Shown here: positions 28,149-51,601 of the stretch, in pieces | Layout: the number at the start of each line of letters is the position of its first letter | Numbering within the stretch: position 1 is the stretch's first letter | Sequence record: OP114734.1 | Reading direction: 5' to 3' (one strand) | DNA: 64,000 bases | DNA from: Escherichia phage vB_ESM-pEJ01 | Notes under the pieces: generated by a model | What the model saw: only the letters and a program-made list of their open reading frames with translations | Database searches by the model: none | What the model was told of the DNA's origin: nothing | Made by a program: the position numbers and the translations under genes

Positions 28149-28805
28149 ATGCAAGTTTCTGAAAAAGGGAAAGACTTTGCTATCTCAAATGTCCTGCGCG
28201 CTATTTTCACAACTAAAAGCACGGAGTTGCTCGTACTTCGTGTTTTTGCTGCCGTCGTGTTGTCCATATTAGCATTTGTCGTTTATAGTAAAAACGAGTT
28301 ATTTGCGCTTTATAAAGAGACTCGTTATGAGACTTATGCTCACATTCTCCAGGTAGAGAAAGACCGCAATTTTGATAATGCAGCACAGGAGCAGTTACAG
28401 ATAGTTCATGTGTCGGCTGATGCCGATTTTTCTGCTGTTTTTAGCTTTCGTCCGAAAAACCTAAACTATTTTGTTGATTTGGTGGCATATGAAGGAAAGC
28501 TACCGCATACGATCGATGAAAAGAATTTAGGCGGGTTCCCTATCAATAAAACGAGTGAAGAATATCGTAGGCATCTTTTAGGTAAATCATATTTTACCGA
28601 TAAAGATTTCCAGTATATTCCATCGAGGGAGAAAAAATTAGAGAATATCGATATAGGGTTTATGTATTCTTGTCCTATATTCAATCTCGATAATGTCTAT
28701 TCTGGTAGTATCGCCATTGCATGGAAGAATAAACCGGATATTGACATTGAGAATTTGGATACTCTTTGCAATCAATCTGCCAGAATCCTCGGAAGGATTA
28801 GATAA
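28149..28805 (+). CDS. t: holin
   Basis: 218 aa; LQIVHVSADADFSAVFSFRPKNLNYFVDLVAYEGKLP and C-terminal ARILGR match remembered T4 holin T. Confidence 0.9.
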   Translation: MQVSEKGKDFAISNVLRAIFTTKSTELLVLRVFAAVVLSILAFVVYSKNELFALYKETRYETYAHILQVEKDRNFDNAAQEQLQIVHVSADADFSAVFSFRPKNLNYFVDLVAYEGKLPHTIDEKNLGGFPINKTSEEYRRHLLGKSYFTDKDFQYIPSREKKLENIDIGFMYSCPIFNLDNVYSGSIAIAWKNKPDIDIENLDTLCNQSARILGRIR

Positions 28806-28810
28806 CTTAA

Positions 28811-28844
28811 AGGGGAAGCCTTTCGGCCTCCCCTTCTTTTTTAT
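28811..28844. terminator. bidirectional rho-independent terminator between convergent genes
   Basis: hairpin AGGGGAAGCC-TTTC-GGCCTCCCCT with T-run on plus side and A/T-rich tract on minus side. Confidence 0.6.
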
Positions 28845-29089
28845 TGGCGCATAGAAGCCCCTGAATCACATTTTGACGCTGTATGATGAAAACAGGTAGC
28901 GTACCAGTCATCGGCTTGTTTGTCTTCGTCAGAAAACGCGTAATTGCGTTGTATGCCGTTTTCTACTTTGACCAGTGCAATAGCTGTTTCTGGAAGATCA
29001 ATCAATCGGACAAAATCGCCATCTTCCCATTCTACACGAGCAATATCATAACCCATCTCAAAATAAACAATCGCTTGTTCTAATTTCAT
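28841..29089 (-). CDS. DUF2829-like small protein (candidate Tad2-like signal sponge)
   Basis: 82 aa; pattern ...FEMGYDIARVEW.DG.FV ... YAFSDEDKQADDWYA resembles the DUF2829 arrangement as remembered; last gene of the accessory island. Confidence 0.35.
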   Translation of the reverse strand: MKLEQAIVYFEMGYDIARVEWEDGDFVRLIDLPETAIALVKVENGIQRNYAFSDEDKQADDWYATCFHHTASKCDSGASMRQ

Positions 29090-30355: not shown

Positions 30356-30643
30356 TTATTTTCGGTTGTGGTCACGATATGTTTTAAAATATCCCTCGTA
30401 CCACGGTAAAACATCTGGATTTTTACCACTATACAGACCTTTAACCATCATGTCAATAAGGCCATCTGGTGTTTGATAGTTTCCAGCTTTTATAAGCTCT
30501 CTGATTAAAATCTCTCTGTATATGTCTTTCGGATCTTCGTAATCAACTTGTATTGTGGTTGTGGTCTCATTCAATTTGGTTTCTGGATTATCTCGCATTG
30601 CATCCCACCAATCTTTTGTGACCTTCATGTTATTGAATTGCAT
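30356..30643 (-). CDS. hypothetical protein
   Basis: 95 aa track ORF. Confidence 0.4.
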   Translation of the reverse strand: MQFNNMKVTKDWWDAMRDNPETKLNETTTTIQVDYEDPKDIYREILIRELIKAGNYQTPDGLIDMMVKGLYSGKNPDVLPWYEGYFKTYRDHNRK

Positions 30644-30654
30644 AATTTAACCTC

Positions 30655-31413
30655 TTACTTGCAAACGTATTGATCTACATCAATTGCTCCACCGAATGTA
30701 GGATGACGTTTTTCAAATCGAATAGTTCCGTCGTTTGGTTCGAAAACGGAGTATTCATATAGATCTTTCTTGCCAACATTCTTATAAAACCCGCCTTTAG
30801 TCATAACGGTTTCTTGTACGTTTGCTTTGTGTACGTTGTATTCGTCAATGTATACAAAATCAACCATCTTCCCATTTTTAATGGTTACTTTAAGATCTCC
30901 TGGTTGATTTCCATATTTGGCATACAGTGGCGCTTCTTTAATTTTTGTGGAAATTCCATCTTTCATACTCCACTCATAACGAACGGTGCATTGATAGGTA
31001 AAAGTTTCGACCTTCGGTTCTTCCACCACTTTTTCTTCCTGTTTCGGTTGTTCTTCTTCAACCTTCGCAGAAGTCTCTGAATCGCTTTCTGACGCGGTTT
31101 CTTCTTTAGGTAATACATTCATCAAGTTTTGGATTTGAGCGTTGTATACAGCCTCCAGTGGCTGAATCTGCCCGATATTGATCATTGTATCACGAACAGT
31201 TTTATTCCAGTTGCGTTGCTCTTGTTTAAGAGACGGATCAATCTTAACAGCCTTAACATACACCTCATGAAGTTTCGAATCCAGTGCTGAGATTGACTCA
31301 TTAGCACAAATAAACTTCTCTGATTTGGTAGTGGCTTTAGCGCAATCAAAGGACGCAGCATTAGCACCGAAAGCAGTAGCGGAAATAACGATAGCAGCGA
31401 TAATGTTTTTCAT
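30655..31413 (-). CDS. secreted protein with LprI-like (DUF1311, lysozyme-inhibitor-like) N-terminal domain
   Basis: 252 aa; signal peptide MKNIIAAIVISATAFGANA; FDCAKATTKSEKFICANESISALDSKL...QRNW motif; SD GAGGAA and promoter 31448..31476. Confidence 0.5.
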   Translation of the reverse strand: MKNIIAAIVISATAFGANAASFDCAKATTKSEKFICANESISALDSKLHEVYVKAVKIDPSLKQEQRNWNKTVRDTMINIGQIQPLEAVYNAQIQNLMNVLPKEETASESDSETSAKVEEEQPKQEEKVVEEPKVETFTYQCTVRYEWSMKDGISTKIKEAPLYAKYGNQPGDLKVTIKNGKMVDFVYIDEYNVHKANVQETVMTKGGFYKNVGKKDLYEYSVFEPNDGTIRFEKRHPTFGGAIDVDQYVCK

Positions 31414-31447
31414 AATATATTCCTCAATGTTTTGTCTTGATGGGAGT

Positions 31448-31476
31448 ATCTTACTACTCCCTTAATCCGGTGTCAA
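31448..31476 (-). promoter_or_regulatory. sigma70-like promoter (TTGACA-17-TAAGAT) with -10 in hairpin loop
   Basis: hairpin GGGAGTATCTTACTACTCCC identical to the one at 4551..4570. Confidence 0.55.
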
Positions 31477-31696: not shown

Positions 31697-31730
31697 GTGA
31701 TTCTCCTTCTTTCGTTTCGGTGTGGGAGTA

Positions 31731-31759
31731 TGTTAATACTCCCATTTCTTTACGTCAAC
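31731..31759 (-). promoter_or_regulatory. sigma70-like promoter (TTGACG-17-TAACAT) with hairpin
   Basis: hairpin GGGAGTATGTTAATACTCCC around the -10. Confidence 0.5.
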
Positions 31760-32200: not shown

Positions 32201-32231
32201 CTTTGATTCTCCTTTTGTTTGGTATGGGAGT

Positions 32232-32260
32232 ATGTTACTACTCCCTTGTTCTGGTGTCAA
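32232..32260 (-). promoter_or_regulatory. sigma70-like promoter (TTGACA-17-TAACAT) with hairpin
   Basis: hairpin GGGAGTATGTTACTACTCCC around the -10. Confidence 0.5.
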
Positions 32261-32982: not shown

Positions 32983-33187
32983 GTTTTACCCCCTCTGATA
33001 ATTCTTTCATCAAGCTGTCGATCTTTGCTCTGTGTTCTGGCGTGTTTGTCATCTCTGCTAATTTGCTCAGAGATTCACTGGTGATCCGGTTGGATTCTTC
33101 CAGTGTTTCAACGACAATTGGAACAATCTTTTTATTGTTGTACAGAAATGCAATATAACCGTCTTCTGGATATTCTTTCATAATCAA
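32975..33187 (-). CDS. hypothetical small protein
   Basis: 70 aa track ORF immediately downstream of gene 52. Confidence 0.4.
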   Translation of the reverse strand: MIMKEYPEDGYIAFLYNNKKIVPIVVETLEESNRITSESLSKLAEMTNTPEHRAKIDSLMKELSEGVKHE

Positions 33188-34545
33188 CCCTTCTTAAGTT
33201 CTTTAAGATCTTTCTTATATTCCTTCATTGCGGTCGTCTTTGTCCAATACTCATATTCACTATGATGTTTCTCGGCATCTTTGACCAGTCGATCATACTC
33301 TTCTTGAGTAACGCTATACAATGGCATAGAAACTAGCTTATCGGCGTATGGACGCAGTTTTTCATGTCCATTGATGGATTGCATTACCTCGTCCTTTTTC
33401 TTTCCCTGTAGCTCGATTTCGCCCTTAATTACGCGATCGATAAATTCGGCTTTAGCCATTGCATAATTGTATGCTTCCAGCGTTTCCGCTTGCATCAATT
33501 CAATGCGTTTATCGACATACCCTAATCGGATTTCGACGAATCGACGGATCAGATCGCTCGCTTTCTCGAATACTTCTACTAAACCACGTTCGTTAACTAC
33601 TACGATATTCTGGGCTACTAACTGCGTTAGTTTAAAATCCTTCATGATTTGCTCATGTCGAGCGGATTCATCTTCGCTTTTGAAATAATCGCGTTTCAGT
33701 GTTACTTCAAATCTGAATCCGTCCTTAGAGCAACGGTCATTATACGATACAATCAGATCTTTTTCTTCCAGTGCATCCAGTACCGCTACATATTCTTCAC
33801 GGTCGAACTTATAAGGAACTTCTGATATTGTCAGTTTAGTCTTGCCGTTTAGTTCATATGTACCCTCAAGAATCACACCATCGCGATCATCTCGCGGGAT
33901 AACTTTACCTGTGAATTTCGGGAATTGAACACTAGGTTCTTTATCCAGTTTTCCGGTAAGTGCTAGCTCTGTGCATTCAATAAGGCTTTCCAGTGAATGC
34001 GGTAAAATGTCAGTTTTATACCCTGTAGCAATACCACTAATACCATTAGCCAATACCATTGGCACAACTGGCAAGTAGAAAGCTGGCGGGATGTGTTCCA
34101 GATCTTCGTGCTTAGGTGCGCAATTCATATCTTTATAGATTTTAAAGAAGTTTTCATGCACACGAGCAAAGATATAACGTGCCGCACCTGCTTTCTGGAC
34201 TAAACGCGATCCGAAGTTACCTTGACCGTCAAGCAGTGGAGTATTATTGCTCCATGTATTCGCCATGAGTGATCCGGCTTCTACGGCATTAGTTTCGCCG
34301 TGGTGATAACCCAACTCGGCAACACCAGATCCAATATCTGCCATCTTACGGAATTTCTTACGGTCGCCTTTACTCTTTTGAAGTGCGCACTCCATAACAA
34401 AGCGTTGCACTGGTTTAAGCCCATCCACTAATTGAGGAATCCCGCGTTCCTCGGCAGAATAGATCGCATATTCCTTAGCTTCATTATGTACAATGCTTTC
34501 AAGGCTGCGGTAAGTAACTGATTTATTCATCTTCACCTCATACAC
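33184..34545 (-). CDS. 52: DNA topoisomerase II medium subunit gp52
   Basis: 453 aa; GyrA-like N-terminal domain (QLVDGLKPVQRFVM..., active-site Tyr region), T4 gp52-like size. Confidence 0.88.
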   Translation of the reverse strand: MYEVKMNKSVTYRSLESIVHNEAKEYAIYSAEERGIPQLVDGLKPVQRFVMECALQKSKGDRKKFRKMADIGSGVAELGYHHGETNAVEAGSLMANTWSNNTPLLDGQGNFGSRLVQKAGAARYIFARVHENFFKIYKDMNCAPKHEDLEHIPPAFYLPVVPMVLANGISGIATGYKTDILPHSLESLIECTELALTGKLDKEPSVQFPKFTGKVIPRDDRDGVILEGTYELNGKTKLTISEVPYKFDREEYVAVLDALEEKDLIVSYNDRCSKDGFRFEVTLKRDYFKSEDESARHEQIMKDFKLTQLVAQNIVVVNERGLVEVFEKASDLIRRFVEIRLGYVDKRIELMQAETLEAYNYAMAKAEFIDRVIKGEIELQGKKKDEVMQSINGHEKLRPYADKLVSMPLYSVTQEEYDRLVKDAEKHHSEYEYWTKTTAMKEYKKDLKELKKG

Positions 34546-48573: not shown

Positions 48574-48777
48574 TTATAGCTCAAATTTCATGAAAGTTCC
48601 CACACTTTCATTTTCATTCTCTCCGTTTTCATCTAAGCCAAATTTGTAGACACTACCATCTGGCGATGTGTAAGAGAATACACGAAAACGGCCTACCGGA
48701 TCAAGTTCTGTAAATTCATATTCTTTTCCGGCTTCAAAAAGTGAATATGTGCTTTTAAGACATTTCATCGTGATCAT
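48574..48777 (-). CDS. hypothetical small protein
   Basis: 67 aa track ORF. Confidence 0.4.
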   Translation of the reverse strand: MITMKCLKSTYSLFEAGKEYEFTELDPVGRFRVFSYTSPDGSVYKFGLDENGENENESVGTFMKFEL

Positions 48778-49040
48778 TTAAGCGCCACCGACAACAGAAT
48801 GAGAACTACACCAACATACATTGTGATCTCGGATAACTTTTCTGTTTTTGTTTTGTGTCCAGATAATCCGAAAACAACAACACCGACAATAGCGGACAGC
48901 AAGCCAACGATAAACATGATGATACTAAGCACCGTCTTTCTCCTTTTTGCGTTTTTCTTTACCCGATATACTAGGTCCACGATTGGTAATAGATCCGCTC
49001 GTTTCACCTGCTGCGATCTTCTCAGGATTGCCGCCAGCAT
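48774..49040 (-). CDS. small membrane protein (two predicted TM helices)
   Basis: 88 aa; hydrophobic stretches IIMFIVGLLSAIVGVVVFGL and MYVGVVLILLSVAL. Confidence 0.4.
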   Translation of the reverse strand: MLAAILRRSQQVKRADLLPIVDLVYRVKKNAKRRKTVLSIIMFIVGLLSAIVGVVVFGLSGHKTKTEKLSEITMYVGVVLILLSVALK

Positions 49041-50188: not shown

Positions 50189-51601
50189 TTAGAAAGTCAT
50201 GTTATTTGCTAGCTCGTCGAGTTTTTCTCGTTTCTCGGCTTGCTGTGCGCTTTGTGGTTTAACTTGTGCATTCTCCTGATCTGCGATCTGGTTTGGTACT
50301 TCATACCAACGCTGATTGCCTTTTTTCACACCAACGTTAAACCGTGAATAATAGTTCTTATCACCGTAACGAGACTTGATCTGCTTCATGAGTTGGACGC
50401 CCATTTTAGCCAGGTCTTCGGTTTCGATAACACCCAACATAAAGTCGGCAGTAGCCGGAAGACCTGCCGATTCAGCGGTATCACTCATGTTAAGGTCGGA
50501 AGCATCCCAACCCGCGCGGGTAGTCTGTGCCGCAGTCCAACCAACAACATCCCACTTAACAAAAAATCCTCGCAGTTCTTCCGCAATCGCCTTAACTAGT
50601 GTGTAACTATTTTCAGAGTATACACGCAAGCGAGACGATGCGCAAATCCCAAGATAGTCAACAATCACAACATCAGGTTTAAACTGTTTCTTGAGTCGCA
50701 ATTCATTCATTAACGCCTCAAAGTGATTGGAGTTCGCGCCACCAGTCGGATACTGCTTGATCATCAATTTTCCAACCGGACGATCTCCGATCTTCTTATT
50801 CTTAACACGCTTCATACGTGCGGAATATTCCGCAAAAGAAACATTACCATTATCCAATTCATCTAATGTAATGTCAAGCAAGTTTGCGTCAATACGTTTG
50901 GCTACGACATGCTCTGCCATCTCCATTGAGATATACAATACATCATAACCACATTCCATATAATCCGCAGCAAGAGAACACAGTCCAAGCGATTTGCCAA
51001 CGTTTACACCAGCAAGCAACACGTTTAGCGTTTTTCTTTCCGCCCCTCCTTTCGTGATTTTATTCAACATCGGCAGCTTAAATGGGATCTTATTCGCCTT
51101 AGTCTGATATAACAGGAATCGTTTTTCAAAGTCATTAAACCAGTCATGACCTACATCAGAATCAAACGTAATGGATAGTGCTTCCTGCATAATTTCAGGA
51201 ATAGCGCCCTCACTAGGCAATTTCTTATTCTGTTTCTCTTTTGGTAGTTGTGCGTTCGCCTGAATCTCTAGCGCCCGTGACATTGCATTGTACATAGCAC
51301 GGTCACGAATAAATTTTTCGGTTTCCTTCATTAACCAATCAAGGTCTTCCGGTGTATTCTCCAGCGAATCGAGAAGAGTTTTAGCCCCTTCATATGTTGT
51401 CTGATTGCCTCTCTCCTTGTCTAAAGCAATCTGTAATGCAGTTGGCGTAGGAATATTGGAATATTCGTCTACGTGCTTTTTAATCAGCTTATAAATCAGT
51501 TTTTCTTCGTCTTCGGTGAAGTAGTCCGCTTTAAGGTGAGGCCATACATTCGTAAAGAATGCGCCATTGTAAATCAACTGTGAAAAGATAGTTTTAATCA
51601 T
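50189..51601 (-). CDS. 41: replicative DNA helicase gp41 (DnaB-like)
   Basis: 470 aa; N-terminus colinear with remembered T4 gp41; Walker A ...AGVNVGKS... Confidence 0.9.
   Translation of the reverse strand: MIKTIFSQLIYNGAFFTNVWPHLKADYFTEDEEKLIYKLIKKHVDEYSNIPTPTALQIALDKERGNQTTYEGAKTLLDSLENTPEDLDWLMKETEKFIRDRAMYNAMSRALEIQANAQLPKEKQNKKLPSEGAIPEIMQEALSITFDSDVGHDWFNDFEKRFLLYQTKANKIPFKLPMLNKITKGGAERKTLNVLLAGVNVGKSLGLCSLAADYMECGYDVLYISMEMAEHVVAKRIDANLLDITLDELDNGNVSFAEYSARMKRVKNKKIGDRPVGKLMIKQYPTGGANSNHFEALMNELRLKKQFKPDVVIVDYLGICASSRLRVYSENSYTLVKAIAEELRGFFVKWDVVGWTAAQTTRAGWDASDLNMSDTAESAGLPATADFMLGVIETEDLAKMGVQLMKQIKSRYGDKNYYSRFNVGVKKGNQRWYEVPNQIADQENAQVKPQSAQQAEKREKLDELANNMTF

Follow-up and report, generated by a model that had tools for sequence, protein, structure and literature searches.

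The analysis of a 64,000-nucleotide stretch of Escherichia phage vB_ESM-pEJ01 (OP114734.1; hereafter, the window) centred on a minus-strand open reading frame (ORF) at 30655..31413, which encodes a 252-amino-acid (aa) protein from an ATG start and joins a nearly constant DUF1311/LprI-type head to a hypervariable tail. The window is ~97% identical to the RB49-like coliphages (genus Krischvirus, Straboviridae), in which the ortholog of this ORF is RB49p262 (NP_891833.1). A first-pass annotation of the window had described a secreted protein with an LprI-like lysozyme-inhibitor domain, but it overlooked what is, on sequence comparison, the most striking feature of the gene: the C-terminal domain is encoded by a cassette that recombines and is hypervariable in sequence. 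Just 20 clusters at 90% identity came out of a search of 5.8 billion proteins. When these were aligned, the first ~130 residues proved nearly invariant (the N-module was about 95% identical in DNA), while the last 110-125 residues shared C142, G153 and C251 alone. At the DNA level the cassette spans 30655..31030 on the minus strand, beginning in the distal linker and ending with the stop codon, as delimited by blastn and by a profile in 30-nt bins. On either side of the cassette, identity between the window and other Krischvirus contigs was 87-97%, but between ~31012-31043 (in the distal linker) and ~30652-30673 (at the stop codon) no blastn similarity with those contigs was found, and the 30-nt bin profile agreed on this loss of similarity. 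The distal part of the linker thus marks the 5' recombination boundary, with identity falling at aa ~125-135. Every variant was syntenic in Krischvirus, occupying the same locus between gene 52 and t.

Clustering of the C-domains at 55% identity gave at least seven types, which fell into two super-classes and were 20-50% identical to one another. The gene is present in 58 Krischvirus genomes: allele a, the one in the window, was carried by 44 of the 58 isolates with a protein that was mostly 100% identical, 12 of the 58 (phi1, GEC-3S, MIZ2/3/6, E26 and others) had an allele that was 36% identical, and JSE had a class-d form of the domain. Within allele a, codon differences in the C-domain between the window and either RB49 or TB34 amounted to 7-8 synonymous and 0 nonsynonymous changes, which argues that there is no ongoing hypermutation. 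The phage and prophage copies of class c differed at 39 synonymous and 38 nonsynonymous codons in the C-domain; for the N-module the corresponding counts were 13 and 4. A concentration of the variability in loops was considered and ruled out (mean conservation was 0.58 in strands vs 0.52 in loops). Read together, these comparisons show the pattern of long-standing allele classes that persist on a backbone homogenised by recombination.

The gene was not confined to phages, as its N-module was found at 94-96% DNA identity in 26 of 5426 complete E. coli genomes, with one chromosomal copy in each, and the N-module was the only stretch that these prophage copies shared with the window. At the four E. 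coli loci examined, the gene adjoined the host genes hicAB/yncJ/rlhA and lay ~8 kb from a lambda-type terminase gene. The chromosome contigs L003, L005 and L016 are among the loci with such prophage-edge copies, and in the last of these, from O55:H7 DEC5A, the hicB gene adjoining the prophage copy is annotated as truncated. The GC content of the prophage-borne gene (38-39%) was like that of the phage, with the host flank at 48%, and one prophage copy retained 72 bp of the Krischvirus 3' flank; together, the phage-like composition and the retained flank suggest that prophages acquired the gene from a phage of the T4 type. The same signal peptide and DUF1311 head (36-47% identity), here with unrelated C-terminal regions, recurred in more distant homologs from Klebsiella Marfa-like phages, Aeromonas T4-like phages, SSU5 and ev099. 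In Klebsiella phage Marfa (L011:2501-3259), for instance, a protein that is also of 252 aa has the same head and an unrelated tail, and its gene is situated between the primase and dCTPase genes, ~2 kb from Marfa's annotated spackle gene. A search of the literature yielded no account of domain-level cassette polymorphism, of the orphan barrel described below, or of sharing between phage and prophage.

The encoded C-terminal domain (allele a; aa 137-252, 30658..31005, minus strand) is bracketed by the invariant C142 and C251, and a Y-x-C...IDG...C motif was present in all of the C-domain types. It had been described in the first-pass annotation as beta-rich, and an AlphaFold2 model agreed, with the domain all-beta and consisting of about 10 strands over aa 135-251 at a predicted local distance difference test (pLDDT) score of about 88. 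A separate model of a class-d C-domain was also an all-beta barrel (pLDDT 80, predicted template-modelling score 0.71), which argues that the C-domain types are divergent homologs rather than unrelated insertions. On these models, the C-domain is structurally a small up-and-down beta-barrel. Structure comparison of the class-d model gave scores of 9.3 for Cap15, 9.2 for PhiA, 7.9 for Salmonella PliC and 7.3 for Brucella PliC, Foldseek matches in the PDB were weak (best E=3.9e-3), and the barrel resembled generic binding folds, i.e., Cap15, lipocalin/FABP, NHBA, fHbp and TbpB. By sequence, the C-domain is an orphan: no match to it was found in the PDB (phmmer, hmmsearch), NCBIfam or PADLOC, ten C-domain alleles had no match in Pfam at E up to 10, PF09864 included, and 1.84 billion representatives, when searched with a profile, yielded family members, two spurious repeat proteins and nothing else. 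Membership of the MliC/PliC family was considered and rejected on the basis of an hhalign probability of ~1% (against a narrow MliC alignment, made up of relatives at >=75% identity alone), the equally good scores of unrelated barrels, and the SGxxY loop, which in that family inserts into the active site of lysozyme; it was conserved in no allele class, and its nearest counterpart in allele a was KGGFY. The likeness of the C-domain to MliC/PliC ends at the level of the fold.

The constant part of the protein begins with a Sec (signal peptidase I) signal peptide at aa 1-19 (MKNIIAAIVISATAFGANA, followed by AS; 31357..31413, minus strand). It is made up of MK, 12 hydrophobic residues and an ANA↓AS cleavage site, with no lipobox, and the AxA↓ASFDC junction was also kept in the distant homologs of Marfa and the Aeromonas phages. 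The hydrophobicity profile and the AxA site bore out the earlier description of a typical Sec signal peptide, and export of the protein is predicted on these grounds. A helical domain of the DUF1311/LprI N-terminal type follows at aa 20-102 (31108..31356, minus strand), with a conserved pair of cysteines, C24 and C36. The motifs cited for it at first reading (FDCAKA...FICANESISALD...QRNW) were indeed present in the ORF, and a hidden Markov model (HMM) search upheld the assignment, since Pfam PF07007 (LprI/DUF1311) matched aa 24-76 at 26 bits, above the gathering threshold of 22 (E=1.3e-5). AlphaFold2, using a 16-sequence alignment, modelled four helices at aa 30-98 (pLDDT 70-78), and the helical fold is like that of 3gi7, a solved DUF1311 structure, with the N-terminal cysteine pair conserved. 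The assignment itself is already known: the RB49 ORF (RB49ORF260c in that numbering) was reported as a weak DUF1311 match (E=0.2) by Nolan et al. 2006 (PMC1524935), and the E. coli homologs are named 'lysozyme inhibitor LprI family protein' by the annotation pipeline PGAP. The head is joined to the barrel by an E/K/P-rich linker at aa 103-136 (31006..31107, minus strand), which was as acidic as first described (net charge -8) and was disordered in the model at aa 104-132 (pLDDT <50). Among alleles its length ranged from 21 to 45 aa, with KVEE(E/K)QP-like units, and variant P0002 had a 12-aa deletion within it. Cysteine pairs occur in both domains, which fits an oxidising periplasm.

Sequence comparisons left little room for a chance ORF. 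PHROG 14799, to which no function is assigned in that database, matched the 252-aa protein over its full length (E=7.5e-156), and matches to PHROGs 4675 and 33858 were limited to its N-terminal part. Codon differences from relatives in the N-module comprised 11-16 synonymous and 1-5 nonsynonymous changes, and since differences from relatives were mostly synonymous, the gene is under purifying selection; on this evidence it is a real gene. Its ortholog was labelled 'hypothetical protein' in every phage record inspected. A Shine-Dalgarno sequence, GAGGAA (31420-31425), lies 6 nt 5' of the ATG. The gene is part of a hyperplastic block of early genes on the minus strand, flanked by topoisomerase gene 52 (33184..34545) and holin t (28149..28805), and just 5' of the gene, at 31440..31476 on the minus strand, is an element resembling the promoter-early stem-loop (PeSL) cassettes known from RB49 and phi1 (PMC2839356). 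It scored 10/12 in a promoter scan, with a -35 TTGACA (31476-31471), a 17-nt spacer and a -10 TAAGAT (31453-31448), and has a GGGAGTA/TACTCCC stem-loop at 31441-31460. This 37-nt repeat, a sigma70-like promoter plus the stem-loop, occurs three times in the window (31440-31476, 31722-31758 and 32224-32260) and fits the PeSL motif; we infer that the copy at 31440-31476 is active as an early promoter. Elsewhere in this block, an 82-aa ORF adjoining holin t (28841..29089, minus strand) matched the Pfam Tad2-like family (Thoeris anti-defence 2) at 27.9 bits against a cut-off of 25 (E=3.4e-6), and this weak match recurred in the related contigs L007, L009 and L010.

As to function, the reading that we prefer, tentatively and as something short of a probable one, is that the product is a periplasmic immunity or exclusion protein directed against peptidoglycan hydrolases as they come in, and that its second module diversifies. 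A soluble, Sec-exported protein of two modules would be expressed early and reach the periplasm, where a constant helical DUF1311/LprI-N module would be connected by the flexible acidic linker to a small, disulfide-closed beta-barrel, of which RB49-like phages and the lambdoid prophages of E. coli would exchange at least seven types through homologous recombination in conserved flanking DNA. The protein would bind and neutralise peptidoglycan-cleaving proteins arriving from outside, the prime candidates being muramidases of the T4-lysozyme/pesticin type, e.g., the tail lysozyme (gp5) that T4-like phages bring with them on superinfection, or effectors of type VI secretion systems (T6SS) or of the bacteriocin kind. 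The infected or lysogenic cell would thereby be protected, and the swappable barrel would act as the second, diversifying specificity module. Such binding, the identity of the target and an exclusion phenotype are inferred. More doubtful is a specific form of this reading, in which virulent T4-type phages and temperate prophages would have one modular exclusion or immunity factor in common, the DUF1311 head would neutralise T4-lysozyme-type muramidases as a non-homologous analogue of Spackle in a genus that has no Spackle, the barrel cassette would set the specificity against invading phages or effectors, and the allele classes would be a balanced polymorphism like that of immunity-gene repertoires.

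Several observations are in keeping with the preferred reading. The signal peptide without a lipobox, the cysteine pairs and the early-promoter motif suit its localisation and timing, and deeply diverged C-domains on near-identical backbones, with purifying selection inside allele a and a gene held in common with prophages, are the kind of evolution typical of conflict genes. Precedents come from the literature, in which the DUF1311 protein Etsi4 relieves the toxicity of Etse4, an effector that acts in the periplasm (PMC12981562), LprI-domain proteins of Pantoea adjoin lysozyme-like effectors (PMC9796082), and a pesticin-domain T6SS effector has an LprI-domain protein as its neighbour (bioRxiv 10.64898/2026.08.01.741415). 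Lysozyme inhibition by the 252-aa protein is plausible. No Spackle homolog was found in RB49 or the window with tblastn and HMM searches, and a literature search for Spackle with RB49 found nothing; a weak match at 50342-50533 was discarded as spurious, since it lies inside helicase gene 41. The first-pass annotation had suggested a possible non-homologous functional analogue of Spackle, and 'non-homologous' was apt: the N-domain showed no profile similarity to a Spackle alignment (hhalign probability 0.1%). RB49 gp5 retains its Phage_lysozyme domain, and the RB49 endolysin (RB49p102, L017:4719-5108) is a Peptidase_M15_4 (VanY-like) protein and no T4-type lysozyme, so a periplasmic lysozyme inhibitor would leave the phage's own lysis unblocked. 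T4 Spackle, for its part, has to tell gp5 from the endolysin gpe (PMC7677548). As a separate observation, the interval in which T4 has sp and the 61.x genes contains, in the window, an 88-aa ORF (48774..49040, minus strand) with genes 61 (primase) and 41 (helicase) on its two sides; it has two hydrophobic segments and, judging by these, may be a small membrane protein.

A number of points weigh against a role in hydrolase neutralisation. The Pfam family takes its name from Mycobacterium tuberculosis LprI, whose activity is credited to its MliC domain (PMC7933661), and deletion of scwA, which encodes a periplasmic protein consisting of DUF1311 only, leaves lysozyme sensitivity unchanged (PMC7933661); because of these two precedents, to be called a 'lysozyme inhibitor LprI' protein counts as weak evidence of activity. 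PhiA, the closest soluble match to the barrel, neither bound nor inhibited SagA or hen egg-white lysozyme (HEWL) in vitro (PMC8334348), and the C-domain lacked sequence similarity to MliC, with hhalign at ~1%, no match in Pfam or PDB profile searches and no conserved SGxxY. Identity of the gp5 lysozyme domain was 98.7% or higher across all Krischvirus genomes and did not depend on which C-domain allele they had, which disposes of covariation between the two and means that the phage's own gp5 cannot explain the diversification of the C-domain. Finally, a two-domain DUF1311 protein coexists in Marfa with an annotated Spackle, so one does not simply stand in for the other.

The invariance of gp5 bears equally on the most serious of the rival explanations, an unlikely one in our estimate though better placed than the others, in which the barrel binds a target that is no hydrolase, such as some other periplasmic component of an invading phage (tape-measure or ejection proteins), an envelope protein of the host, or the periplasmic sensor of a host defence system, and DUF1311 is no more than a module for scaffolding, oligomerisation or tethering. 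The absence of covariation with the phage's own gp5 is as this explanation would have it, as is the generic binding fold of the barrel; the occurrence of the same head with unrelated C-terminal modules in Marfa, in the Aeromonas phages and in PHROGs 4675/33858 would suit a generic carrier, and the discrete, deeply diverged allele classes suggest targets that are discrete and diverse. Yet no candidate partner was identified, PADLOC gave no match, and the DUF1311 literature points repeatedly to antagonism of peptidoglycan hydrolases (PMC12981562, PMC9796082).

That literature also supplies the next possibility, which we consider improbable, that the protein resembles ScwA in binding or stabilising host lytic transglycosylases or other peptidoglycan-remodelling enzymes, so tuning envelope integrity or the timing of lysis. 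ScwA raises the levels of MltD and, when overproduced, lyses cells (PMC7933661), and holin t is ~2 kb from the phage gene. Host peptidoglycan enzymes are conserved, however, and would not drive seven allele classes, early expression is better suited to protection than to lysis, and the architecture of ScwA differs in that its DUF1311 is C-terminal (PMC7933661). It is most improbable that the protein truly inhibits animal c-type lysozymes in the manner of MliC/PliC, as a functional equivalent of LprI that benefits lysogens in animal hosts: there was no PF09864 match, the hhalign value was the same ~1% and SGxxY was not conserved, the phage protein is no lipoprotein, and resistance to the lysozyme of a host animal would bring little to a lytic phage whose latent period is short.

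The 95-aa gene directly downstream (30356..30643, minus strand), which has neither a signal peptide nor a Pfam match, raised a last explanation. It occurs as two types, type I in the window, RB49 and L007, and type II in L009, L010 and JSE, which are 43-52% identical and have the core LIxELIxAGNYQTPxGLIDMMV in common; among the contigs examined, these two types were set against at least five C-domain classes in mixed pairing. That the protein is a polymorphic toxin, with a conserved N-terminal delivery part, a variable C-terminal toxin and the small downstream gene as its immunity gene, is scarcely credible, for although such toxins characteristically combine a conserved head with a variable tail and the adjoining gene is dimorphic, the pairing is not one to one (classes a and c go with downstream type I and classes b, e and d with type II), the downstream protein lacks a signal peptide where the barrel would be periplasmic, and the barrel matched no toxin family and has a fold of the binding type.

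Should the reading as a periplasmic immunity or exclusion protein be true, it would provide the first function for a phage DUF1311 protein and would account for how RB49-like phages, which are without Spackle, cope with superinfection or lysis from without. The alleles would then offer, ready-made in nature, recognition domains that can be swapped on a single scaffold, of use for mapping the periplasmic invaders that phages and prophages resist. The sharp boundaries of the cassette represent modular exchange within a gene, at the level of the domain, and add such a case to the PeSL-mediated shuffling of whole genes known in these phages. They are also a record of genes passing recently between lambdoid prophages and a virulent lineage of T4-type phages. 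Were the function left unconfirmed, the ORF would be an ordinary accessory one with an informative domain annotation, which its relatives in RefSeq already bear.

The barrels of MliC, PliC, PhiA and the ACP proteins are ~85 aa in length, compared with ~116 aa in the phage domain, and have neither HMM or profile similarity to it nor an SGxxY loop in common with it. The MliC/PliC fold is an antiparallel barrel of eight strands in which a disulfide joins the first strand to the last. MliC and PliC do share the Y-x-C at strand 1 with the phage C-domain, E. coli MliC also has a cysteine near its C-terminus, and in PhiA the barrel closes through a disulfide, Cys76-Cys154 (PMC8334348). In overall layout the phage protein is like M. 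tuberculosis LprI (Rv1541c), which is exported and has an N-terminal PF07007 domain followed by a small disulfide-containing beta-barrel (PMC7933661); LprI differs in being a lipoprotein with a recognisable MliC barrel (PF09864), whereas the phage protein has a signal for signal peptidase I, a long acidic linker, and a hypervariable barrel with no MliC signal or SGxxY. Salmonella ScwA is likewise a soluble, disulfide-stabilised periplasmic DUF1311 protein (PMC7933661), but its DUF1311 is at the C-terminus, and it is chromosomal, not polymorphic, and regulates MltD with no effect on lysozyme sensitivity (PMC7933661). Etsi4 of enterohaemorrhagic E. coli, Psi15 of Pantoea and orphan immunities resemble the phage protein in being periplasmic DUF1311 proteins from mobile or variable loci and are tied to the neutralisation of cell-wall-degrading effectors (PMC12981562, PMC9796082, 10.64898/2026.08.01.741415); the DUF1311 immunities of T6SS adjoin the gene for their cognate effector, while the phage and prophage gene has no effector partner and encodes an additional, variable barrel. 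T4 Spackle (gp61.3), the inhibitor of the gp5 tail lysozyme, differs in being a single helical bundle of 75 aa that is well conserved among its homologs (PMC7677548), in contrast to the two domains and polymorphic tail of the phage protein. Even so, Spackle too is the product of an early T4-type gene, Sec-exported, disulfide-bonded and periplasmic, and it is by analogy with Spackle that a comparable role is proposed here.
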